Shown one piece after another: positions 2,606 to 53,375 of a DNA stretch of 64,000 bases. Origin of the DNA: Escherichia coli (GTDB lineage: Bacteria; Pseudomonadota; Gammaproteobacteria; Enterobacterales; Enterobacteriaceae); NCBI RefSeq assembly GCF_003790525.1, contig NZ_CP033635.1; one strand, 5' to 3'. Within the stretch, counting starts at the first letter, position 1. The number at the start of each line of letters is the position of its first letter. The notes under the pieces are model-generated. The model did not search any database. It was not told where the DNA came from and saw only the letters and a program-made list of their open reading frames with translations. The translations under genes and the position numbers were made by a program.

Positions 2606-2683
2606 TTTATGTCAGGCAAGGCGTTCGTTGCCAGATGTGGCGTGAACGCCTAATCGCGCAGGTTTAGGGGCCAGTCCGGGCGT

Positions 2684-7876: not shown

Positions 7877-7907
7877 AAAACGGGAGGTGAAGGTGCCTCC
7901 CGTTTTT
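7877..7907. terminator. Bidirectional intrinsic terminator (AAAA-CGGGAGG-loop-CCTCCCG-TTTTT) shared by envZ and the minus-strand antitoxin gene
   Basis: 7 bp GC-rich stem 7881..7887 / 7896..7902 with A-run before and T-run after; antitoxin stop codon (7906..7908) lies in the T-run. Confidence 0.75.
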
Positions 7908-8202
7908 AGATTGTTTTCAATTGATTGATAATGAAAGGATTCGCTTGCAAAAGCAGGAGCAATTTTCGGGGTGCTCCGGTAGGCTGACGGCGTTTGGTTT
8001 CCCAGCTTTTGACCAGGTCATAACTTACCCCTACGGCGACAGCAAAATCTTGCTGACGTAAACCCGTTGCTTCACGGATCGCTTTTACATCGATTTCGCT
8101 AAAAGTATGGACGTGCTCTGGTTCTGGCGTTTCTTCACCCTTTTCGATGCGTACCATTTCTTCTGCGCTGGCAAGAAGATCAGCAAATAATTCATCTTTC
8201 AT
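7906..8202 (-). CDS. HigA-like antitoxin, XRE-family helix-turn-helix DNA-binding protein (98 aa)
   Basis: ATG at 8200..8202 with GGAGG Shine-Dalgarno about 10 nt upstream; C-terminal half has an HTH_XRE signature (LRQQDFAVAVGVSYDLVKSWETKRRQPTGAPRKLL); 58 bp downstream of a RelE/ParE-type toxin gene. Confidence 0.75.
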   Translation of the reverse strand: MKDELFADLLASAEEMVRIEKGEETPEPEHVHTFSEIDVKAIREATGLRQQDFAVAVGVSYDLVKSWETKRRQPTGAPRKLLLLLQANPFIINQLKTI

Positions 8203-8260
8203 CTGTTTTCAATGCCTCCGTTGACATTTCGGCCATGGTGGAATTTGTGGAGCTTCAACA

Positions 8261-8578
8261 TTAAAGCAGCTTCTCGGACAATAGTTTCAATGCCTTTCTT
8301 TGTTCTTCTGTTAAATCATCCTGTTCATTTTTAGGATAAATCAACGCCAGATAAATTCGGCCATTGCGTGTTACGTTGTAATAAATTATCCGAGTGCCAC
8401 CCCGTTTCCCCATTCCAGAACGGTTCCAGCGAATTTTTCTAAAACTGCCTGTGCCTGCGATAATGTCACCGGCAGTGGGATCTTGAATGAGTAGTTCCTG
8501 AAAAGCCCGGAACTCATCATCAGGTAGCAATAACTGGCGGCGTTTGCTAAATCCTTGTAGTTCAATAAAGGTGAACAT
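8261..8578 (-). CDS. HigB-like toxin, RelE/ParE superfamily (Gp49-like), probable ribosome-dependent mRNA endonuclease (105 aa)
   Basis: ATG at 8576..8578 with AGGA SD; motif GTGSFRKIRWNRSGMGKRGGTRIIYY resembles the conserved core of HigB-2/Gp49-like toxins (recalled Vibrio HigB: GTGGLRKIRVASKGKGKRGGSRIIYY); toxin-upstream, antitoxin-downstream order typical of hig loci. Confidence 0.72.
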   Translation of the reverse strand: MFTFIELQGFSKRRQLLLPDDEFRAFQELLIQDPTAGDIIAGTGSFRKIRWNRSGMGKRGGTRIIYYNVTRNGRIYLALIYPKNEQDDLTEEQRKALKLLSEKLL

Positions 8579-10693: not shown

Positions 10694-12418
10694 ATGGATA
10701 GCGTTGAACTTTCACCCGCAACACGTTGGGGGATGATTGCTACCGGATTACTTCAGGGTCTGGTTTGCTACCTGCTGATCGCCTGGCTTGCAGGAAAAAA
10801 TCTCAGTTGGATTGTTTATGGCGTGCCTGCGACCGTCGCGTTTTCATCCGTTTTACTCTTCTCCGTGATCTCCTTTAAACAGAAGCGCCTTTGGGGATGG
10901 CTGGCGCTGGTGTTTATTGCCACGCTAGGGATGAGCGGTTGGCTAAAGTGGCAAATTGATGGCATGACCCCCTGGAGAGCTGAAAAGGCGATTTGGGATT
11001 TTGGCTGCTATCTGCTGCTGATGGCAATGTTGTTGCTACCGTGGATACAACAAAGCCTTCGCATCCGCAATGACAGTAGCCGCTATCGCTATTTTTACCA
11101 GTCAGTATGGCATAACGTACTTATATTACTGGTGATTTTTCTCGCCAATGGCCTGACGTGGCTGGTGCTTTTACTGTGGAGTGAGTTGTTTAAACTTGTT
11201 GGCATCACGTTTTTCAAAACGCTCTTTTTTGCAACCGACTGGTTTATTTATCTAACGTTAGGTCTGGTTACCGCGCTGGCGGTGATCCTCGCGCGAACAC
11301 AGTCACGTTTAATCGACTCTATTCAAAAGTTGTTCACGTTAATCGCCACGGGGTTGCTGCCGTTAGTATCATTGCTAACCCTGATGTTTATTATCACCCT
11401 GCCGTTTACGGGCCTGAGCGCGATTTCTCGCCACATCTCCGCCGCTGGGTTGCTGTTAACGCTGGCCTTTTTGCAATTGATCTTAATGGCTATTGTCCGC
11501 GATCCGCAAAAAGCGTCACTTCCCTGGACGGGGCCGTTGCGTTGCCTGATTAAAACCGCTCTGCTGGCTGCTCCGCTGTATGTGTTCGTCGCCGCCTGGG
11601 CGTTATGGCTGCGGGTCGCTCAGTACGGCTGGACTGTCGACCGCTTGCAGGGCGCGCTGGCGGTGCTGGTGTTACTGGTATGGTCGCTGGGGTATTTTGT
11701 CAGTATCGTCTGGCGTAAAGAGCAAAACCCTCTTGTTCTTCAGGGCAAAGTGAACCTTGCGGTTTCGTTATTGGTGTTGGTAATACTGGTGCTTCTTAAT
11801 TCGCCGGTGCTGGATAGTATGCGCATTAGTGTGAACAGTCATATGGCGCGTTATCAGAGCGGCAAAAACACGCCAGACCAGGTAACTATCTACATGCTCG
11901 AACAGAGCGGTCGCTATGGACGTGCGGCGCTTGAGTCGCTGAAAAGCGATGCCGGGTTTATGAAAGACCCGAAACGCGCGCGGGATCTGCTGATGGCGTT
12001 AGATGGAGAGCAACATCTTCAGGAACAGGTATCGGAAAAAGTATTAGCCGATAATGTGTTAATTGCCCCAGGTTCTGGTAAACCGGATGCGACATTCTGG
12101 TCGGCCTTAATCCAGGATCGCTTTAACGTGATGACCTGTATTGAAAAAGACGCCTGCGTACTGGTCGAGCAAGATCTGAATAGTGATGGTCAGGCGGAGC
12201 GGATCCTGTTTGCTTTTAATGATGACAGAGTCATTGTCTATGGCTTTGACTCAGATAGAAAAGAATGGGACGCGCTTGATATGAGTTTACTTCCGCGCCA
12301 AATAACGAAAGAAAAATTACTCGCTGCTGCGAAGGATGGAAAGCTGGGGACGAGGCCTAAAGCGTGGCGCGATCTGACGGTAGATGGTGAAACGCTGGAA
12401 ATAAACTTAAGTAAGTGA
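10694..12418 (+). CDS. yhgE: Inner membrane protein YhgE (DUF4153 family), function unknown
   Basis: 574 aa, highly hydrophobic N-terminal two-thirds; translation recognised as YhgE. Confidence 0.9.
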
Positions 12419-12477
12419 CAACGCTTTTAACGGATACGACGCTGTATCTGACCAAAATAACTTGCGATTTATTTCAT

Positions 12478-12505
12478 AGGCCTGGTAAGCGCAGCGCATC
12501 AGGCC
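12478..12505. repeat. REP-like palindromic unit (TAGGCCTGGTAAGCGCAGCGCATCAGGCC)
   Basis: Imperfect palindrome with GCCTGATGCGC core typical of E. coli REP elements, between convergent yhgE and hslO. Confidence 0.4.
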
Positions 12506-12520
12506 ATTACGTCGTAAAAT

Positions 12521-12542
12521 CCGGCAGAGCCCTCTCTGCCGG
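12521..12542 (-). terminator. Hairpin (9 bp stem CCGGCAGAG / CTCTGCCGG) 10 nt downstream of hslO stop; possible terminator
   Basis: Perfect 9 bp stem with 4 nt loop; weak T-run (ATTTTA) follows on minus strand. Confidence 0.4.
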
Positions 12543-12551
12543 ACATACTCA

Positions 12552-13430
12552 TTAATGAACTTGCGGATCTGCCGGAGACGCGTTGTTGCGGATTTCAGCA
12601 ATATCCATCGCATTGAACAGATAGTGGTTACCGCAGTAATCACAATGCATGTCAATTTCGCCATCTTCCGCCAGGATGCTATCGACTTCTTCATCCGGCA
12701 GCGTTTTTAGCGCGTCGGCGCAACGTTCACGCGAGCAGGTGCATTTGAACTCCACATCCTGCGGATCGTAAACCGTCACCTCTTCTTCGTGATACAAACG
12801 CCACAACACTTCGTTTGCCGGTAAGGTCAGCAGTTCTTCGGTTTTGATGGTTTCGGTTAGCGTCGCCAGGTGGTCAAAGTCGTCCTGCTGGGCATTTTGC
12901 GCAGGCATTACCTGCAACAACATACCGCCTGCAGCCGGTTTGCCGTCTACGTCGCCGGTGCGAATAAACAGGCGCGTCGGCAACTGTTCAGAACGCATAA
13001 AGTAATCTTCCAGGCAGGCCGCCAGGGTATCACCTTCCAGACCCACCACGCCCTGATAGCGTTCGCCTTCGCTTGGGGTGATGGTGATCACCACGTAACC
13101 ATTGCCGACCAGCGTTTTCAGGTCGGCATTTTCTGGAATTTCGCCCTGCACGCGCGCTACACCGCGCATCTGCTGGTTGTTGTTACCGTTAATAACCGCC
13201 AGATTCATCGGACCGTCGCCTTGCAGCTGTACGGTGATATCACCATCAAACTTCAACGTAGCGGTTAACAGGCTGGTCGCAACCAGCAGTTCTGCCAGCA
13301 CGTTTTTAACGGGCTGCGGATAATCGTGATTCTCAAGGATCTGTTGCAGGGTTTCCGAAACGGTTACCAGTTCGCCGCGAACGGCAAAGTTTTCAAACAG
13401 ATAGCGATGTAATTGGTCATGTTGCGGCAT
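12552..13430 (-). CDS. hslO: Redox-regulated chaperone Hsp33
   Basis: Translation recognised; two in-frame ATGs (13436 gives MIMPQHDQ..., 294 aa; 13430 gives MPQHDQ..., 292 aa). Confidence 0.93.
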
Positions 13431-13454
13431 AATCATCTCTCTTGCAGGTGACAG

Positions 13455-17054: not shown

Positions 17055-17615
17055 ATGAGCAAATCATTACAAAAACCCACCATTCTGAATGTTGAAACTG
17101 TAGCCCGTTCACGACTGTTTACCGTCGAAAGCGTGGATCTGGAGTTCAGCAATGGCGTGCGGCGTGTTTATGAACGAATGCGTCCAACCAACCGGGAAGC
17201 GGTGATGATTGTGCCGATTGTGGACGATCACCTGATCCTGATCCGCGAATACGCAGTGGGAACGGAATCCTACGAATTAGGTTTTTCGAAAGGATTAATT
17301 GATCCGGGTGAAAGCGTCTACGAAGCCGCTAACCGCGAGCTAAAAGAAGAAGTGGGATTTGGTGCGAACGATCTGACTTTTTTGAAGAAGCTCAGCATGG
17401 CGCCGTCTTACTTTTCCAGCAAAATGAATATCGTGGTAGCGCAAGATCTCTATCCGGAATCGCTGGAAGGCGATGAGCCAGAGCCGCTACCACAGGTGCG
17501 CTGGCCGCTGGCGCATATGATGGATTTGCTGGAAGATCCTGACTTCAATGAAGCGCGTAATGTCAGCGCGCTGTTCCTCGTGCGCGAATGGTTGAAGGGG
17601 CAGGGGCGGTTGTAA
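17055..17615 (+). CDS. nudE: ADP compounds hydrolase NudE (Nudix)
   Basis: 186 aa; Nudix box GLIDPGESVYEAANRELKEEVG present. Confidence 0.94.
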   Translation: MSKSLQKPTILNVETVARSRLFTVESVDLEFSNGVRRVYERMRPTNREAVMIVPIVDDHLILIREYAVGTESYELGFSKGLIDPGESVYEAANRELKEEVGFGANDLTFLKKLSMAPSYFSSKMNIVVAQDLYPESLEGDEPEPLPQVRWPLAHMMDLLEDPDFNEARNVSALFLVREWLKGQGRL

Positions 17616-17628
17616 ATGCGTGAAGTTT

Positions 17629-17654
17629 GCCTGATGCATAATGCTTATCAGGCC
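17629..17654. repeat. REP-like palindromic unit (GCCTGATGCATAATGCTTATCAGGCC)
   Basis: Near-perfect palindrome with GCCTGATGC / GCTTATCAGGC arms just downstream of nudE. Confidence 0.45.
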
Positions 17655-17754
17655 TGTGCGGCTCCTGCAATATATTGATTTTTCTAGATGTTGCCAGACG
17701 GGTAAAGTGTTCACGCCGTATCCGGTATAAACAAAGTGCACTTTGTCAGCAAAC

Positions 17755-17782
17755 AGAAAAAGGCGCCGAAGCGCCTTTTTAA
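17755..17782. terminator. Bidirectional intrinsic terminator between convergent nudE and mrcA (AAAA-AGGCGC-CGAA-GCGCCT-TTTT)
   Basis: 6 bp GC stem with A-run and T-run flanks, abutting mrcA stop codon. Confidence 0.7.
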
Positions 17783-20335
17783 TCAGAACAATTCCTGTGC
17801 CTCGCCATTATCGATAATGGTCGTTCCCACCTCGTGCACCGCCTGTTGTGTCGGCTGCGTACCTTCGATGAAATACTCTTCGCGGCTGTTGCCACCATTA
17901 GCTAACTGCCCGGTGCTGCGATCGATATTCACCGTCACAATACCCGGCGGCGGCGTCAGCGGCTGCTCCGGCACACCTTCAAGAACGGCTTTCATATAAG
18001 CGTCCCATGCAGGCTGGGCACTCTTGGCACCGCCTTCGTAACCTGAGATCTGATCTTTAATCGCTCCAGAAGCCGTTGTATGACCGAGATTACGACGGTG
18101 ATCATCAAAGCCAATCCAGACCGAGGTCACAACGCCCGGACCGTAACCCGAGAACCACGCATCTTTCGAACTGTTAGTGGTACCCGTTTTTCCGCCTATA
18201 TCATGCCGTTGTAAATCACGACCTGCTCGCCAGCCAGTACCCTGCCAGCCTGGTTCACCAAAAATATTGGTGTTCAAGGCACTCTTAATCAGGAATGCCA
18301 GCGGTGTGTTGATGACGTGCGGTGCGTACTCCTGCGCGCCAGTCTTCGCCACTAACGCCTGATTTGCCTGCTCCAGCTGCGGCATTGGTACAGAAACATT
18401 CTGCTGCTCGCGGGAGATAGCGACATCTTCAACATCGTTATTTTCCAGAACGTTCGATTTCTGCGTATCACCGTAAATCACCGGAATATCGCATTCCGGG
18501 CAGGCTACTTTCGGTTTCGCTTCGAAAATCACGCCGCCCTGATCGTTTTCAATTTTGCTGATAAACCACGGGTCCACCAGGAAGCCGCCGTTCGCCATGA
18601 CCGCGTAGCCACGCGCCACCTGCATTGGGGTGAAGGACGCTGAACCCAGCGCCAGCGATTCGGTGTGGACAATGTTTTGTGCCGGGAAGCCGAAGCGTTG
18701 CAGATATTCTGCAGCGTAGTCGACGCCCATCGCCCGCATTGCGCGTACCATCACCACGTTTTTCGACTGACCCAGCCCCTGACGTAAGCGAATTGGACCA
18801 GCATATTGTGGCGGCGAGTTTTTCGGCTGCCAGTCAGAACCGGCACCTGCGTCCCAGCGAGAAATTGGCACATCGTTCAACATACTTGCCAGCGTCAGAC
18901 CTTTATCCATCGCCGCGGTGTAGAGGAACGGTTTGATGTTGGAACCCACCTGACGCAGTGCCTGGGTGGCGCGGTTAAACTTGCTCTGATTGAAATCAAA
19001 GCCACCGACCAGCGCCATAACGGCACCGTTTTGCGGATTGATCGACACCAGCGCCGAGTTCACTTCCGGCACTTGTGCCAGCCACCATGCATCGCCAACC
19101 TGACGAACCCAGATTTGCTGACCCGTTTGCAAAACATCGGTCACTTTACGCGGCGTCGGTCCCTGCTGAGTATCCGAACGGTAAGGACGCGCCCAGCGAA
19201 CGCCTTCCATACTCAATGCGACGGTCGACCCGTCCGCCAGCATCGCCGTCGCTTCCTGAGGATTGGCGCTGGTGACTGCGGCAGGCAGCAGAGGACCATA
19301 GGTCGGCAGCGCCTTCAACGTATCGGTAATCTTGTTGTTATCCCACGCCGATTCGCCCACTTTCCACAGCACATTTGCCGGGCCGCGATAGCCGTGGCGC
19401 ATGTCGTAGTCCAGCACGTTATTACGTACTGCCTGCTGTGCGGCCTGCTGTACTTTGCGGGTGATGGTGGTGTAAATGCGATAACCGTCTTCATAGGCAC
19501 TTTCGCCATAACGGTTATACATCTCCTGGCGCACCATTTCGCTCAGGTACGGCGCAGAGAAAACAATCTCCGGCGCGTGATAGTTAGCGTTAATCGCCTC
19601 AGTGTGTGTCTGATCGAACTGTTGTTGGGTGATATACCCTTCATCCAGCATCCGCGACAGTACGACGTTACGCCGCGCGACGGCACGATCCATTGAGTAG
19701 AGCGGATTAAAGGTGGAAGGCGCTTTCGGCAGCCCGGCTATCACCGCCATTTCGTTCAGCGTCAGTTGGTCGACCGTTTTACCGAAATAGACTTGTGCCG
19801 CAGCACCGACACCATAGGCGCGGTAACCGAGGTAAATCTTGTTCAGATAAAGCTCGAGGATCTCGTCTTTCGTCAGCAACTGTTCAATGCGAATCGCGAG
19901 GAAGACTTCCTTAATCTTACGCATCAGCGTGCGTTCTGGACTGAGGAAGAAGTTTCTCGCCAGCTGCTGGGTAATGGTACTCGCCCCTTGTGACGCGTGG
20001 CCGGAGAACAGCGCCACACTTGCCGCACGGAAGATCCCCACCGGGTCAACGCCGTGATGCTCGTAGAAGCGGCTGTCTTCCGTCGCGATAAAGGCTTTCA
20101 CCATCTCCGGCGGGATTTGATCCAACGTAACCGGAATACGACGTTTCTCACCGTATTGAGCAATCAGCTCGCCATCGGCGCTGTAAATCTGCATCGGAAT
20201 TTGCAGGCGAACATCTTTTAATGTCGCCACATCCGGCAGTTGTGGCTCGATGTAGCGGTATAGGCCATAAATCGAGCCTGCTCCCAGCAGAATGCAACAG
20301 ACTGCAAGGATCAAAAAATACTTTACGAACTTCAC
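17783..20335 (-). CDS. mrcA: Penicillin-binding protein 1A (bifunctional transglycosylase/transpeptidase)
   Basis: Translation recognised. Start ambiguous: GTG at 20333..20335 gives 850 aa MKFVKYFLILAV...; in-frame ATG at 20357..20359 gives 858 aa. Confidence 0.94.
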   Translation of the reverse strand: MKFVKYFLILAVCCILLGAGSIYGLYRYIEPQLPDVATLKDVRLQIPMQIYSADGELIAQYGEKRRIPVTLDQIPPEMVKAFIATEDSRFYEHHGVDPVGIFRAASVALFSGHASQGASTITQQLARNFFLSPERTLMRKIKEVFLAIRIEQLLTKDEILELYLNKIYLGYRAYGVGAAAQVYFGKTVDQLTLNEMAVIAGLPKAPSTFNPLYSMDRAVARRNVVLSRMLDEGYITQQQFDQTHTEAINANYHAPEIVFSAPYLSEMVRQEMYNRYGESAYEDGYRIYTTITRKVQQAAQQAVRNNVLDYDMRHGYRGPANVLWKVGESAWDNNKITDTLKALPTYGPLLPAAVTSANPQEATAMLADGSTVALSMEGVRWARPYRSDTQQGPTPRKVTDVLQTGQQIWVRQVGDAWWLAQVPEVNSALVSINPQNGAVMALVGGFDFNQSKFNRATQALRQVGSNIKPFLYTAAMDKGLTLASMLNDVPISRWDAGAGSDWQPKNSPPQYAGPIRLRQGLGQSKNVVMVRAMRAMGVDYAAEYLQRFGFPAQNIVHTESLALGSASFTPMQVARGYAVMANGGFLVDPWFISKIENDQGGVIFEAKPKVACPECDIPVIYGDTQKSNVLENNDVEDVAISREQQNVSVPMPQLEQANQALVAKTGAQEYAPHVINTPLAFLIKSALNTNIFGEPGWQGTGWRAGRDLQRHDIGGKTGTTNSSKDAWFSGYGPGVVTSVWIGFDDHRRNLGHTTASGAIKDQISGYEGGAKSAQPAWDAYMKAVLEGVPEQPLTPPPGIVTVNIDRSTGQLANGGNSREEYFIEGTQPTQQAVHEVGTTIIDNGEAQELF

Positions 20336-20454
20336 TGGAAATTTCCCATTTAGTTTCATTTGGGCAGTTTATAAACAAACGCGCGGTAGTATAAAGGCAA
20401 GCCAGACGCATTGATATACCCGTCAGAGTGACGGGTGATAAGGAGATCATCACA

Positions 20455-30572: not shown

Positions 30573-30589
30573 TTTAACATTAATGCCAA

Positions 30590-37055: not shown

Positions 37056-38141
37056 ATGAAGACGTTTCCTCTGCAAAGCCTGACGCTTATTGAGGCGCAG
37101 CAAAAGCAGTTTGCGCTGGTGGATAGCATTTGTCGCCATTTTCCCGGCAGCGAGTTTCTTGCTGGCGGTGATTTAGGCTTAACGCCGGGGCTGAATCAAC
37201 CGCGCATTACCCAGCGAGTGGAACAGGTGCTGGCTGATGCATTTCACGCACAGGCTGCAGCGCTGGTACAGGGCGCGGGTACTGGCGCGATCCGTGCGGC
37301 GTTGGCGGCTTTGCTCAAACCGGGGCAGCGTCTTCTGGTGCATGACGCGCCTGTTTACCCGACGACTCAGGTCATTATTGAGCAGATGGGGCTGACGCTT
37401 ATTACTGCTAATTTCAATGACCTGTCGGCACTTAAGCAGGTCGTCGACGAGCAACAACCGGATGCGGCGCTGGTGCAGCATACGCGCCAGCAGCCGCAGG
37501 ACGGCTACATTCTGGCAGATGTGCTGGCAACGTTGCGCTCGGCAGGTGTTCCAGCCTTAACCGATGATAACTATGCGGTGATGAAGGTGGCGCGCATTGG
37601 CTGTGAATGCGGGGCGAATGTCTCGACATTTTCCTGCTTCAAGCTATTTGGGCCAGAGGGTGTTGGCGCGGTGGTAGGCGATGCCGATGTTATTAGCCGG
37701 ATTCGCGCCACGCTCTATTCCGGCGGCAGCCAGGTTCAGGGCGCGCAGGCGCTGGAAGTCTTGCGTGGTCTGGTGCTCGCGCCAGTGATGCACGCGGTGC
37801 AGGCGGGGGTATCTGAACGGTTGCTGGCTTTGCTTAACGGCGGCGCGGTGGCGGAAGTGAAAAGCGCCGTCATTGCCAATGCACAGTCGAAGGTATTGAT
37901 TGTGGAGTTTCATCAGCCGATTGCCGCCAGAGTGCTGGAAGAGGCGCAGAAACTCGGTGCCTTGCCTTACCCGGTTGGTGCAGAGTCGAAATATGAAATC
38001 CCGCCGCTCTTTTATCGACTTTCCGGAACGTTTCGCCAGGCGAATCCGCAGTTAGAACATTGCGCGATTCGCATTAACCCAAATCGCAGCGGTGAAGAGA
38101 CGGTATTGCGGATTTTGCGCGAGAGTATTGCCGACGTTTAA
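37056..38141 (+). CDS. yhfS: Putative PLP-dependent enzyme YhfS
   Basis: 361 aa; translation recognised. Confidence 0.88.
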   Translation: MKTFPLQSLTLIEAQQKQFALVDSICRHFPGSEFLAGGDLGLTPGLNQPRITQRVEQVLADAFHAQAAALVQGAGTGAIRAALAALLKPGQRLLVHDAPVYPTTQVIIEQMGLTLITANFNDLSALKQVVDEQQPDAALVQHTRQQPQDGYILADVLATLRSAGVPALTDDNYAVMKVARIGCECGANVSTFSCFKLFGPEGVGAVVGDADVISRIRATLYSGGSQVQGAQALEVLRGLVLAPVMHAVQAGVSERLLALLNGGAVAEVKSAVIANAQSKVLIVEFHQPIAARVLEEAQKLGALPYPVGAESKYEIPPLFYRLSGTFRQANPQLEHCAIRINPNRSGEETVLRILRESIADV

Positions 38142-38171
38142 TTCTGGGAACGATGTTTTTCGAAGAGTATG

Positions 38172-38207
38172 GAGAAAAAATACGCCCTCGGAAAATCTCG
38201 AGGGCGT
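38172..38207 (-). terminator. Intrinsic terminator downstream of yhfL (stem CGCCCTCG / CGAGGGCG, T-run on minus strand)
   Basis: 8 bp GC stem 38183..38206 with A-run 38172..38181 on plus strand (T-run on minus). Confidence 0.55.
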
Positions 38208-43955: not shown

Positions 43956-44116
43956 ATATTGCTGATTTGTATAAATTTTCTTAAGTCACGGAATTGTCTG
44001 ACATTTCATGTTTGTACAAAAAACAGACAAATTGAGCGGGTTTATAGAAATAGATGTACGTAGCGCGGTAAGAGAGGAAAAGGCCGGACGACGATAGTGC
44101 CGCCCGGCATGAGCAA

Positions 44117-45298
44117 TTAATGAGAGGTCAGGGTGTTATGCTGACGGTGACGGCTGACGAAACCTAACAGGAAGCACATCACAAAGACGACAGCGTACAG
44201 ACCGTTTGCCGTCAGCAGCGCCGCCTGCGGACCGCTATGTTCAACAATCGGGCCGGTAACCACAAAGGTCAACATAGTACCGATGGTCCCGCAGGTCAGG
44301 ACAAAGTTAACCAGTTTTGGCGACGGTACTTTGGTCTGCTGTGAACCCAAAGTGATGATGGTGGTATAGATCGCGCTGGAGAAGAAGCCCAGGGCGAGAA
44401 TTGACCACGCCATATGTGCCGGTGTTCCGGTGTTAAAGACGTACATCAGAATCGCAGCCAGACCAGCCAGTACGGTCAGAATGCGTTGCAAATCAAAGAA
44501 GCGAAGAATAAAGCTGAACGCCCACATGCCGACCATGTATGACATCCAGAAGTTACTCACCAGCGTGCCCGCGTCGTTCAGGCTCATGCCCAGGCCTTTG
44601 GCATACTCAGGCACCCAGGAGATAAAACCTAACTGACCGAGGATGTAGCACAGTGCCGCAATGGAGAGAAACAGCACGCCGATCCCCCATTTTTCTTTCG
44701 CTACCGGAGCGTCCGTTTTTGGCGCATGTTTACCCAGCGCCGGGAACTCACAGCCGAAGGTCAGAATAAAGATAGCGACGTACACCAGCCCGATGCAGGC
44801 ATAAACCCAGTACCACTCAATGCTGCGCGCCAGCAGAAACGCGGCGATCATTGGGAAAATCATCCCGGCCATACTGAAGAAGGAGTCGGTAAATAACAGG
44901 CGTGAACCGCGCTGACGTCCTTCATACATTTGTGTTACCAGGAATGTACCAATCGACATGGTGATGCCGCTGACCACCCCGAGAATGAACATCGCCGCCG
45001 AGAACAGTGCCAGGCTGTGGCTGAACATCAAACCGGCAACCGCCAGCACCATCAGGAGAAAGCCAAAACGTAACTGCGTTTTCAACGGGACGATTTCCAT
45101 CAGCCAGGCGTTGAGGAAGATAGAGATTAAAATGCCGGCGTTGAGGAAGGTGAAGGTATTACTCATACTGGAAACAGGCAGATTGAAATAATCGGCGATA
45201 TTTCCCATCACCATCCCGGTGACAATAACCAACGCACCGGTCAGTGCGTAGGAGAGAAAGCTAATCCATGTGAGCTTGATGCGATTGCTGTTAGTCAT
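44117..45298 (-). CDS. tsgA: MFS transporter TsgA
   Basis: 393 aa; translation recognised. Confidence 0.93.
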
Positions 45299-47670: not shown

Positions 47671-48909
<1,239 letters not shown>

Positions 48910-48966
48910 GACGCATCAGGCAAAAGATGTCGGATGCGGCGTGAACGCTGTATCCGATGGTTTAGC
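48910..48966. repeat. Degenerate REP-like element(s) between convergent argD and yhfK (..CGCATCAGGC.., ..CGGATGCGGCGTGAACGC..TATCCG..)
   Basis: By-eye similarity to REP consensus GCCGGATGCGGCGTGAACGCCTTATCCGGCC with mismatches. Confidence 0.4.
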
Positions 48967-48971
48967 CTGCA

Positions 48972-51062
48972 TTACGCCTTCGAATCCCGCAACTTGCGAC
49001 TCAGCCAAATCCCGTGATGCGGTCGCTGACGCCATGCCATCGACGAAATGGTGTGCATGGTGTTCAGATGACCAATAACCCGCTGTAAATGCTGCTCCAG
49101 CGTACCTGCCGCGCCTTCGTGCGGCTGCATCTCCGGCGCATCCATGATATTGGCATCGCCAGAACTACCCGGTTCGTCATACTCCAGTCGCTGCTGACAA
49201 CGCTGAATGGCGATTTCACAAGACTGTAAATATTCTTGCGCCAGTTCAGGTGGCAATGCCCGGTGTTCCCGTGCCAGCGTGGTCATGGCATTGATATGTT
49301 CAACTATAAACTGACTGTGCGTTACCCACAGTTTCATATCTGCCAGATAATGGCTGTTGAATGCCGGTTCCTGCATCGCCTGATTCAATGAGTTATACAG
49401 AGTGTTATGCGCCTGATTCACCCGCATTCGCTGCCAGGCCAGTGGCGTTGGTTGCGGGTCCTCGCTCAGAATCAAGCGAATCGCGTCCTGATAGGCTTCT
49501 AAAGCGTCATGGGCGTTCTTACGCAATAACCCGCTCTGCCACTGCGGCCACAGCCAGACAGTACCGCCGAAAGCAATTAAACAACCAATAATGGTATCGA
49601 TAAGACGCGGAAGGATGTACTGCTCACCGTTCAGCCACAACAGTTGCAGGGTATACACTGCGGTAATGGTAAAACCGACCGTCGCCCAGCCGTAGTTTTT
49701 GCGCAATATCAGGTAGCTGGCAAGGGTGGTAATCAGCATCAAGGTCAGGGTGTAACCTTCGGGAATTTTAAAGTGCAGCGCCACGCCCGCAATGATTAAC
49801 CCGACCACGGTTCCCACGGAGCGATTCACAATCCTCAGACGGGTTGCGCCATAGCCATTTTGCGTCACCAGCAATACCGTCATCAGGATCCAGTACGACT
49901 TCGGCAGATGCAGCGCGGTGCCCATCAGGCTGGCAACGCTTAACATCACACTGAGTCGTCCGGCATTGCGTAGCGCCGGAGACTTTAGTGACAAATAACT
50001 TTTCAGCGCCGGAAGTAACGGCATTCGCCGCTGTTTATCGGCCAGTAAGTCACGGGCATAGAGCGGTTTTTGGGTGCGCAGCACGCGGGCAATGCGGCTG
50101 AAATGCCAGTAGCAGAATTGCCCAACCGGATTATCCGGGTGTTGGCGGGCGATTTTTTCCAGTGCGCCAATTTGCTTTTCCATCGTAAAACGCGTCGGCA
50201 GGCGATGGTAAAGAATGTCATCAGCCAGCACGCGCAGGCGAGCGGCGACGGTTTGCGCATTCCAGCGGATAACTTCTTCCGCATGGCTACGCTCGACCAG
50301 CTTTTGCACCTCTTCCGGCTGATGCAAACTGACCGAAATATGTTCCTGCAAATCCAGCGCCTCCTGGAAAATACGCAGCATCCGCTTGTAATCGGTATTA
50401 TTTTGCGCGGAAAGCATATGCATTTGCTGATAGCACTGGGTAATTAAATCGACCGCTTTTTGCTGGCGCACCAGCAGCGGCGGCAGCGCTTTTTCAGGGT
50501 CGGTGTGCTGGGTAAGCAGGCTGTATTTGGCTTCACAGTAATCTGCCAGTTCACGGTACAGCAGACTTAGTGACTCGCGTAGCGGTTGTTCGCGCCAGAT
50601 CCAGAACCAAAACCAGTTAAACAATCCGTACCACAAAGTGCCCAGCGCATAGATGAGCAACGGTTCCCAGACCGGCATGTATCCCGCCAGACTGAGGGTA
50701 AAAATGGCGGCGAGCAGCGATGCGGGAAGCAATTTTGCGTGCAATGGCCCCAGCTCAGCAGTGACGCCAAGTACCAGCGTTAATCCGGTCAGCAAAAAGG
50801 GCAGGGGAACATCTTTTGCCAGTAGCACCTGTGTCAGCAAGCTACAGGTGGCAAACAGCGACGCACCAATGATTAAGCGTTTGAAAAAACGTTTATGAGG
50901 CGTATCAAGGCCCGCAATATTGCAACAGGCAGGAACGAGGGAGAAGAGCAGACCGAATCGTAATTCGCCAAGCATTAACCCAACGGCCACGGGCAAACAT
51001 AGCACCAGCGTTTGTCGCAGTGCATAGTTAATATCGGGGTGATAAATCAGTCTGCGCCACAT
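48972..51062 (-). CDS. yhfK: Inner membrane protein YhfK (FUSC-like putative transporter)
   Basis: ORF-track 700 aa (TTG start) trimmed to ATG at 51060..51062 giving 696 aa MWRRLIYHPDINYALRQ... Confidence 0.88.
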   Translation of the reverse strand: MWRRLIYHPDINYALRQTLVLCLPVAVGLMLGELRFGLLFSLVPACCNIAGLDTPHKRFFKRLIIGASLFATCSLLTQVLLAKDVPLPFLLTGLTLVLGVTAELGPLHAKLLPASLLAAIFTLSLAGYMPVWEPLLIYALGTLWYGLFNWFWFWIWREQPLRESLSLLYRELADYCEAKYSLLTQHTDPEKALPPLLVRQQKAVDLITQCYQQMHMLSAQNNTDYKRMLRIFQEALDLQEHISVSLHQPEEVQKLVERSHAEEVIRWNAQTVAARLRVLADDILYHRLPTRFTMEKQIGALEKIARQHPDNPVGQFCYWHFSRIARVLRTQKPLYARDLLADKQRRMPLLPALKSYLSLKSPALRNAGRLSVMLSVASLMGTALHLPKSYWILMTVLLVTQNGYGATRLRIVNRSVGTVVGLIIAGVALHFKIPEGYTLTLMLITTLASYLILRKNYGWATVGFTITAVYTLQLLWLNGEQYILPRLIDTIIGCLIAFGGTVWLWPQWQSGLLRKNAHDALEAYQDAIRLILSEDPQPTPLAWQRMRVNQAHNTLYNSLNQAMQEPAFNSHYLADMKLWVTHSQFIVEHINAMTTLAREHRALPPELAQEYLQSCEIAIQRCQQRLEYDEPGSSGDANIMDAPEMQPHEGAAGTLEQHLQRVIGHLNTMHTISSMAWRQRPHHGIWLSRKLRDSKA

Positions 51063-51112
51063 CGGGGGAAACAAAATGGCGCGCTACCAGGTAACGCGCC
51101 ACTCCGACGGGA

Positions 51113-52451: not shown

Positions 52452-52471
52452 TTTAACTATCCCGTTGTGAA

Positions 52472-52493
52472 GCCGGATAGTATTTTATCCGGC
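52472..52493. terminator. Hairpin (GCCGGATA / TATCCGGC) between convergent yhfA and prkB
   Basis: 8 bp stem with 6 nt loop 21 nt after yhfA stop; no strong T-run. Confidence 0.35.
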
Positions 52494-52505
52494 GTAATAG
52501 CAGAG

Positions 52506-53375
52506 TTACTCGATTTTCTTTCCTTCCATCAATCGTTGCACCAGCGGCAGCATAATTAATTCCATTGCCAGACCCATTTTGCCGCCGGGCACCACTAACG
52601 TATTGATGTGGGAAATGAATGAGCCCTGCAACATCGCCAGCAGCCAGGGGAAATCGATCCCTTCCAGATTACGAAAATGGATCACCACAAAGCTTTCATC
52701 CAGCGACGGGATACCTTTTGCCGCGAACGGGTTTGAGGTGTCGACGGTGGGAACGCGCTGGAAGTTAAGATGGGTGCGGGAAAACTGCGGTGTGATGTAG
52801 TTGATATAGTCTTCCATTGAGCGCACTACTGAGTCCATCACTGCTTCTCGTGAGTGCCCGCGCTCGCTGGTGTCGCGGATCAATTTTTGAATCCACTCAA
52901 GGTTAACGATAGGCACCACGCCGACCAGTAAATCCACATGCTGCGCAACGTTATGCTGTGGCGTGACGACGCCGCCGTGTAAACCTTCATAAAACAGTAC
53001 ATCAGTGGGTTCCGGTAAAGGTTGCCATGGGGTGAATGTCCCCGGTACCTGATTCCACGGTACGGCTTCGTCGTAGGTATGCAGATATTTGCGAGATTTC
53101 CCTTTGCCGCTCTGACCGTATTCAATGAAGGTTTGTTCCAGCAGGCCGAAGTCGTTCGCTTCGGGGCCGAAGTAGCTGATATGCCGCCCGGCGTCGCGCG
53201 CTTTGCGGATCGCCATGTCCATTTCCGGGCGGGTGTAACGGTGAAAACTGTCACCTTCCACCTCGGCTGCATGCAGATTTAACTGCGCGAATATTTTACG
53301 AAACGCGAGGCTGGTGGTGGTGGTCCCCGCGCCGCTGGATCCTGTTACCGCAATGACCGGATGTTTGGCAGACAT
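52506..53375 (-). CDS. prkB: Phosphoribulokinase homolog
   Basis: 289 aa; N-terminal P-loop (GSSGAGTTT). Confidence 0.93.
   Translation of the reverse strand: MSAKHPVIAVTGSSGAGTTTTSLAFRKIFAQLNLHAAEVEGDSFHRYTRPEMDMAIRKARDAGRHISYFGPEANDFGLLEQTFIEYGQSGKGKSRKYLHTYDEAVPWNQVPGTFTPWQPLPEPTDVLFYEGLHGGVVTPQHNVAQHVDLLVGVVPIVNLEWIQKLIRDTSERGHSREAVMDSVVRSMEDYINYITPQFSRTHLNFQRVPTVDTSNPFAAKGIPSLDESFVVIHFRNLEGIDFPWLLAMLQGSFISHINTLVVPGGKMGLAMELIMLPLVQRLMEGKKIE

Follow-up and report, generated by a model that had tools for sequence, protein, structure and literature searches.

REPs are short imperfect palindromes of the types Y, Z1 and Z2. They are recognised as folded single-stranded DNA by TnpA-REP (RAYT), a single domesticated HUH transposase, and binding of DNA gyrase by BIME-2 and binding of DNA polymerase I form part of the general background on BIMEs. 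When folded, the imperfect palindrome gives a stem-loop that carries a conserved internal mismatch or bulge, and E. coli TnpA-REP requires a 5' GTAG (CTAC in the complementary reading) and tolerates no mutation in it (PMC8266576). REP singlets are described as decay products (PMC3337134). About 60% of the K-12 REPs lie between convergent genes, 207 of the 704 convergent spacers carry a REP, and expression is higher in convergent gene pairs that have one; terminal REPs have no global effect on half-life (bioRxiv 10.64898/2026.03.23.713779). In Rho-dependent transcripts, the 3' end falls immediately behind a U-less stem-loop, which stops PNPase and RNase II; annotated REPs make up 24% of these stem-loops (PMC6061677). 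REP/BIME elements are well documented, as are their preference for convergent spacers and their variability between strains.

The stretch of DNA analysed here (the window, 64 kb in total) is 100% identical to E. coli SMS-3-5 (NC_010498.1), in the orientation opposite to that of K-12. Its REPs matter little in themselves because they are elements of an ordinary, already-described kind at largely known loci. The added value is small and twofold: one locus displays a clean decay series from an intact Z2-Y BIME to a lone hairpin without GTAG, including the relocation of the stop codon of a coding sequence into REP-derived DNA, and every REP in the 64-kb stretch has lost the GTAG needed for mobilisation.

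REP units of the window

A sequence-only reading had placed REP-like units in the argD/yhfK spacer (48910-48966), in the yhgE/hslO spacer (12478-12505) and after nudE (17629-17654). The genes are as named there, all three pairs are convergent, and each site lies in an intergenic spacer, in agreement with the reported preference of REPs for convergent spacers (bioRxiv 10.64898/2026.03.23.713779). The consensus strings used for the comparison are validated by the perfect copies in K-12 REP250 (68/68 and 58/58), with the REP325/naRNA4 template of the preprint supplement as a second check. Mismatches were counted against the 28-nt Y core and the Z1 consensus, with 100 dinucleotide shuffles as the control. 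The Y core fits 48929-48956(+) and the Z1 consensus fits 12476-12504(-), each with three mismatches (in 28 and 29 positions, respectively), and none of the 100 shuffles produced a match to either.

The REP census of the whole window was made by gapped local alignment on both strands, calibrated by the best score in 30 shuffles, and five matches exceed every shuffle maximum (Table 1). This census replaced a strict scan for two half-sites, which was dropped; that scan missed the argD/yhfK copy because 8 of the 14 positions in its 3' outer half differ from the consensus. The REP of the yhgF/feoA spacer, REP248 and REP246 are further units that the sequence-only reading had overlooked. The REP numbers come from the supplement of bioRxiv 10.64898/2026.03.23.713779, because the K-12 RefSeq record lists no REP features.

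Table 1. Coordinates of the REP units, flanking genes and associated features in the window; census scores are given with the best score in shuffled sequence.
Feature	Positions	Strand	Remarks
Census match, yhgF/feoA	2618-2655		Y; score 37, shuffle best 32
Degenerate Y-type REP, yhgF/feoA	2619-2655	+	equivalent of K-12 REP252 by homology
yhgE	10694-12418	+	convergent with hslO
Possible vestige of a second REP (tentative), CGGATACGACGCTGTATCTG	12431-12452	+	local score 19
Z1-like REP GCCTGATGCGCTGCGCTTACCAGGCCTAT	12476-12504	-	tail CTAT against CTAC
Census match, yhgE/hslO	12477-12509		Z1; score 46, shuffle best 28
Hairpin terminator TCCGGCAGAGCCCTCTCTGCCGGA	12520-12543		separate from the REP; common to yhgE and hslO
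hslO	12552-13436	-	yhgE/hslO spacer 133 bp, convergent
nudE	17055-17615	+	convergent with mrcA
Census match, nudE arm 1	17623-17655		Z1; score 34, shuffle best 28
Z1-like REP GCCTGATGCATAATGCTTATCAGGCCTGT	17629-17657	+	tail CTGT against CTAC; one arm of the REP251 equivalent
Tail-to-tail linker, BIME-1-like, 51 nt	17658-17708	-	carries the IHF consensus
Exact IHF consensus AATCAATATATTG	17668-17680	-	regular-expression match to WATCAANNNNTTR
Census match, nudE/mrcA arm 2	17699-17736	-	Y; score 34, shuffle best 32
Decayed Y-type arm ATACCGGATACGGCGTGAAC	17709-17728	-	partner arm and GTAG gone in SMS-3-5
Intrinsic terminator	17757-17780		common to nudE and mrcA; from the terminator scan
mrcA	17783-20359	-	convergent with nudE
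REP248	~44067-44122		
argD	47686-48909	+	convergent with yhfK
argD/yhfK spacer	48910-48971		62 bp, convergent
Z2-type REP remnant GACGCATCAGGC, 12 nt	48910-48921	-	reverse complement of the REP head GCCTGATGCGTC
Extended imperfect stem-loop	48917-48969		takes up most of the spacer; on either side of the Y hairpin, CAGGC and AAA are paired with UUU and GCCUG
Census match, argD/yhfK	48919-48956		Y; score 42, shuffle best 32
Head-to-head BIME linker AAAAGAT	48922-48928		aligns with AAAAGGT (SCPM-O-B-8794) and AAAGGGG (E. albertii)
Y-type REP core hairpin	48929-48958	+	GCC..CTAC (iREP) orientation
yhfK	48972-51074	-	convergent with argD
REP246	~52457-52509		

An Rfam scan of the window at the gathering threshold gave 0 matches. 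Below the threshold, naRNA4 (RF02564; gathering score 59.5), the one curated profile that derives from REPs, reaches 18.8 bits at argD/yhfK, where positions 3-30 of the model weakly match the Y hairpin, and 19 bits at yhgE/hslO. The outcome of the comparison with REP profiles is thus divided, clearly significant with single-unit consensus strings and sub-threshold with the curated model. Stem-loops are predicted at all three sites, the nudE unit on the + strand being no better than shuffles (z -0.8). The sub-threshold Rfam scores are the only support for chance palindromes unrelated to REPs, a reading of negligible probability that is refuted by the shuffle controls (no match in the 100 shuffles, census scores above all shuffle maxima) and by the orthology of the argD/yhfK element to an intact BIME that exceeds the Rfam threshold. 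Judged by consensus matches above chance and by orthology to K-12 REP251 and to the intact BIME of sister lineages, the three flagged sites are true REP units. As part of the best overall explanation, we put the probability that all three are fossil copies of E. coli REPs/BIMEs at roughly 0.85.

The comparison with K-12 shows that the loci are not equivalent in the two strains. At nudE/mrcA the unit corresponds to REP251, as detailed below. The yhgE/hslO spacer of SMS-3-5 measures 133 bp against 62 bp in K-12, and the REP lies within the stretch of ~71 bp that K-12 lacks; K-12 keeps only AGCGCATCAGG, an 11-nt half of this REP, and the K-12 REP numbering has nothing between REP251 and REP252. 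The long form of the spacer is found in 1710 of 5426 complete genomes (~32%). The possible second vestige in this spacer is marginal, since its score of 19 lies between the 95th percentile (16) and the maximum (20) of the shuffles. The hairpin terminator is identical to K-12 bidirectional terminator no. 278 (3530656-3530689). A Rho region antisense to yhgE at K-12 3530894(+), orthologous to window ~12230(-) (score 5.6, p 1.6e-19; PMC7815308), indicates that hslO-sense transcription reads past this terminator into yhgE.

A third form of the yhgE/hslO spacer occurs in some strains, for example in E. coli AVS0068, where, at 120-230 of the retrieved locus (orthologous to window ~12473), an IS200/IS605-family element (insQ/TnpB) abuts the REP, with the junction ...GGATGTCAA/TTCATAGGCCTGG. 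This IS family is related to TnpA-REP.

The nudE/mrcA element aligns to K-12 REP251 (3525479-3525576, 98 bp) and appears, from the order of its parts, to have a BIME-1/RIP-like architecture with a candidate IHF site. The sequence-only reading had recorded only the arm next to nudE and missed the linker with the IHF-like site and the Y arm (17658-17728). The Y arm scores 34 in SMS-3-5 against 50 in K-12. With 7 matches across the window, the IHF consensus occurs at about chance frequency, so that the match alone is not significant; what fits is its place between inverted REPs. The intrinsic terminator of this spacer is K-12 bidirectional terminator no. 277.

Decay of the argD/yhfK unit

In the window, the BIME arrangement at argD/yhfK survives as a remnant that consists of the head half of a Z2 unit, a 7-nt linker and a Y unit, whereas the full form is present in E. 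albertii and in strain SCPM-O-B-8794, a divergent Escherichia labelled E. coli. The Z2 remnant includes an exact match to GCCTGATGCG at 48912-48921(-), and GTAGGCCTGATAAGACGC...GCATCAGGC of the full Z2 unit of these two genomes aligns to it. The argD stop codon TAA (48907-48909) lies inside the adjoining REP-derived ATAAGACGC. In the Y hairpin, 48929-48941 pair with 48946-48958 around the loop 48942-48945; this hairpin has lost its outer GC pairs as well as the CTAC/GTAG tail, and GGTT stands where CTAC is expected. As RNA, the hairpin is predicted to fold at -21.6 kcal/mol (z -6.3) in the argD sense and at -11.3 kcal/mol (z -4.0) in the yhfK sense. The 76-nt folds that include the extended stem reach -31.0 kcal/mol (z -4.5) on the + strand and -28.7 kcal/mol (z -4.5) on the - strand, and none of 200 shuffles was as stable. 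The description of this copy as notably degenerate applies to what is lost, namely the outer stem, the tail (CTAC/GTAG) and the greater part of the Z2 unit, but not to the core, which is the second-best REP match in the window. Given the gap between REP246 and REP248 in the numbering and the result of our scan, the element is probably the counterpart of K-12 REP247, for which a literature search returned no relevant mention.

The spacers of E. albertii and SCPM-O-B-8794 hold the complete Z2-linker-Y unit, in the order GTAGGCCTGATAAGACGC-loop-GCGTCGCATCAGGC (Z2), AAAAGGT, GTCGGATGCGGCGTGAACGCCTTATCCGACCTAC (Y). The SCPM-O-B-8794 unit matches the full naRNA4 model with 68.9 bits (E 1e-12), above the gathering score of 59.5, and its spacer, used as a megablast query (28-nt exact word needed), finds 50,769 places in 5,425 E. 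coli genomes, with a median of 10 per genome. This score and the number of copies per genome identify it as a bona fide dispersed BIME unit.

Seven Escherichia alleles were aligned, and they form nested deletion states. In Z0117EC0005, the 5' arm of Z2 and its GTAG are gone and the Y unit with CTAC is kept; in JA0072 and RMDEC465, the CTAC is gone too and 15 nt are missing from the spacer; K-12, O157:H7, ST131 and the majority of the other strains additionally lack the inner palindrome of Z2 (11-12 nt); and SMS-3-5 and RIVM_C037166 carry a further 1-nt deletion in the last codons of argD (window 48899-48909). ArgD of the SMS-3-5 lineage accordingly has 407 rather than 406 residues, with the C-terminus ..IGGK* instead of ..(V/I)GA*, and an identity of at least 99% over the 701-bp region at this locus is reached in only 32 of 5,425 genomes. 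The alignment shows that the argD/yhfK element goes back to a complete Z2-linker-Y BIME unit, that the 5' arm of Z2 was deleted first, then the CTAC tail of Y and then the Z2 palindrome, and that in the SMS-3-5 lineage the stop codon of argD came to lie in the Z2 remnant through the 1-nt deletion. Decay is the parsimonious direction of change because the outgroup is intact and intermediates exist. Since the orthologous copies in SCPM-O-B-8794 and Z0117EC0005 keep the CTAC, the copies in the window are decayed members of the family by descent and not canonical ones.

In Enterobacter, Kosakonia, Pluralibacter, Kluyvera and several other genera among the Enterobacteriaceae sampled, the argD/yhfK spacer measures 10-40 bp and has no REP. 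In four Citrobacter spp. loci, the spacer contains REPs of its own (GTAGGCCGGATAAGCGTAGCGCATCCGGC type), singly or in tail-to-tail pairs, an arrangement that differs from the one in Escherichia and would fit either a recurrent REP target or a remodelled older insertion. In E. coli ST131 strain 5506, the IS66-like ISEc23 (674-1072 of the retrieved locus) truncates yhfK ~100 nt from its 3' end and leaves the REP spacer intact.

The SMS-3-5 allele differs from the K-12-type allele by two substitutions in the stem, CCTT to CTGT. In the argD sense, the result is an uninterrupted stem of 13 bp, three of them G-U pairs, with -21.6 kcal/mol compared with -16.1 kcal/mol for the K-12 allele, which keeps the REP bulge. 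The bulge is closed by G-U and C-G pairs in the argD sense and is still mismatched on the other strand, where the same substitutions weaken the yhfK-sense hairpin to -11.3 kcal/mol. In the yhfK mRNA, 14 nt separate the stop codon from the beginning of the stem (stop 48972-48974, first paired base 48957); on the argD side, the gap between the stop codon and the hairpin is 19 nt.

Possible roles at 3' ends and probable loss of mobility

A terminator scan of 48700-49200 found no terminator-like site, and the hairpin has no U-tract on either strand. In the other two spacers, hairpin terminators are located outside the REPs, and both are listed as experimentally detected bidirectional terminators in K-12. 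Because these separate terminators serve the two spacers, the REPs at yhgE/hslO and nudE/mrcA lie only in the 3' UTRs of yhgE and nudE, as passengers; the nudE/mrcA element may additionally bind IHF. The stabilisation of 3' ends that the sequence-only reading had considered probable is plausible only for argD/yhfK, where there is no intrinsic terminator.

At this locus, a stable stem-loop without a U-tract would be transcribed at the 3' end of both convergent mRNAs. The most likely activity would be passive: transcripts would run through the hairpin, Rho would terminate them further downstream, and PNPase and RNase II, degrading 3'-to-5', would trim them back to the hairpin, which would then set and protect the 3' end. 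In K-12, a Rho region at 3489306(+), antisense to argD, lies ~400 nt past the yhfK stop codon (score 4.33, p 6.7e-9; PMC7815308), which implies that yhfK-sense transcription crosses the hairpin. A passive exonuclease barrier at the 3' ends of both mRNAs appears to be the best-supported mechanism, because there is no terminator, the hairpin is strong on both strands, the Rho region lies downstream and U-less stem-loops provide a precedent; we hold the odds between such a barrier and no function to be roughly even. The curated Term-seq table of PMC7815308 has no 3' end in the argD/yhfK spacer, and the accessible part of the list of bidirectional terminators has no argD/yhfK entry.

The main competitor is a purely neutral fossil, with no host function at any of the three sites, erosion by deletion and a hairpin that persists for lack of time, and we consider it somewhat less probable than even. 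The deletions are stepwise and possibly recurrent, and whole REPs and BIMEs come and go between strains without linked change, as illustrated by the 1710 of 5426 genomes with the long yhgE/hslO form and by the absence of REP250 and REP249 from the window. The seven alleles also show no covariation, in a test that carries little information: none of the 13 stem pairs has a change in both of its halves, and the values do not surpass those of shuffles. Stability varies among alleles from -14.6 to -21.6 kcal/mol on the + strand and from -11.3 to -18.8 kcal/mol on the - strand, a spread that looks like drift, and the lack of a global effect of terminal REPs on half-life is likewise in keeping with neutrality. 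However, the Y core is kept in every allele sampled even though both flanks were deleted right up to it, its hairpin is the only stable structure in a convergent spacer devoid of a terminator, and convergent pairs with REPs are more highly expressed across the genome.

Active roles of the elements are less probable. The hairpin is unlikely to be a bidirectional terminator, either intrinsic or acting through a hairpin-dependent pause or a Rho site. Such a role would fit the 78 REPs found within 306 experimentally defined bidirectional terminators, REP325, which is a partially Rho-dependent terminator, and the strong stem on both strands; yet the U-tract is missing on both strands, the terminator scan was empty, the locus does not appear in the accessible terminator list, and the BCM-sensitive read-through in K-12 is centred ~400 nt past the yhfK stop codon, so that transcription crosses the hairpin. 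Quite unlikely are roles at the DNA level, in which IHF (BIME-1), DNA gyrase (BIME-2) or DNA polymerase I sites would shape local supercoiling. The exact IHF consensus between the inverted REPs of the nudE/mrcA linker and the citation of REP/BIME elements as IHF recruitment sites (PMC3479197) argue for them, but the number of IHF matches in the window is near chance, the adjacent Y arm is decayed in SMS-3-5 and the paired Z2 unit, by which a BIME-2 is defined, is gone from the argD/yhfK remnant.

It is also rather improbable that the decayed Y hairpin was co-opted as the sole two-way 3'-end structure of this terminator-less gene pair, with lineage-specific tuning at the RNA level; within such a co-option, the 14-nt spacing could, speculatively, also throttle yhfK translation. 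REPs within ~15 nt of a stop codon reportedly stall terminating ribosomes and cause tmRNA-dependent down-regulation, in work by Liang, Rudd and Deutscher in 2015. That yhfK translation is throttled in this manner, by obstruction of the terminating ribosome, we consider very unlikely as an explanation of its own. The 14-nt spacing can be read directly from the sequence, and the 15-nt shortening in the three most reduced allele states (C to E) moved the hairpin from ~29 to 14 nt from the yhfK stop codon; but the yhfK-sense stem is the weaker one in SMS-3-5 (-11.3 kcal/mol), and the 19-nt gap on the argD side falls outside the ~15-nt range.

The REPs of the window are probably immobile relics. 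None of them has an intact GTAG/CTAC (at argD/yhfK there is no tail but GGTT, at yhgE/hslO it reads CTAT and at nudE CTGT), and since TnpA-REP requires GTAG, loss of cleavage is predicted. This agrees with a picture in which the majority of chromosomal REPs are immobile relics and in which their local effects on expression, if any, depend on context.

Several other differences from K-12 were observed along the window. After trpS (window 30575-30589), K-12 REP250 (3512507-3512604, with a perfect Z1 and a perfect Y) is missing; SMS-3-5 has 15 bp at this place against 145 bp in K-12, followed by an intrinsic terminator. REP250 represents a clean presence/absence polymorphism of an intact BIME. 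At window 38132-38173, the K-12 frlABCDR region with REP249 (3499692-3504943, ~5.2 kb) is absent from SMS-3-5. In the pck/envZ spacer, where K-12 has 43 bp, the window contains a two-gene cassette of ~740 bp (7906-8578, - strand), with one gene for a RelE-family toxin (8261-8578; PF06296, 28.4 bits) and one for an HTH antitoxin-like protein (7906-8202; HTH_31/HTH_3).

Comparison with known systems

The nudE/mrcA element resembles most closely K-12 REP251, of the BIME-1/RIP-RIB type with an IHF-binding L linker, which occupies the same locus and has the same order of a Z1-like unit, a long linker and a Y unit. The linker motif CTGCAAT(A/T)T is common to nudE/mrcA and the canonical REP250. The IHF consensus is exact in SMS-3-5 and has one mismatch in K-12 REP251; conversely, the 5' arm of the Y unit is lost in SMS-3-5 and better kept in K-12. 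The Z1-like unit lacks an intact GTAG in both.

For argD/yhfK, the closest described system is the Y-Z2 unit of naRNA4/REP325 (BIME-2 type, RF02564), with which the ancestral state shares the Y and Z2 hairpins placed head-to-head across a short linker; the SCPM-O-B-8794 copy matches the full model of 77 positions. The copy in the window, in contrast, has kept neither the Z2 hairpin nor the outer stem pairs nor the GTAG tail, and it stays below the gathering score. Its linker has 7 nt against 13 nt in naRNA4, and it is a single unit, whereas REP325 is a 12-unit array.

In the REPIN/RAYT system, two inverted REPs with a spacer constitute the presumed mobile unit, and a tyrosine transposase present in a single copy mobilises these doublets (PMC3116915, PMC2817692). 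The argD/yhfK pattern is like that of REPIN decay; the RAYT gene lies outside the window, and with the GTAG missing, activity would not be expected. At the RNA level, the element resembles the U-less 3' stem-loops of Rho-dependent transcripts (Dar and Sorek 2018, PMC6061677): argD/yhfK likewise has a stable hairpin without a U-tract directly past the stop codon and, in K-12, downstream Rho read-through, and by analogy it may belong to the same kind of 3' end.
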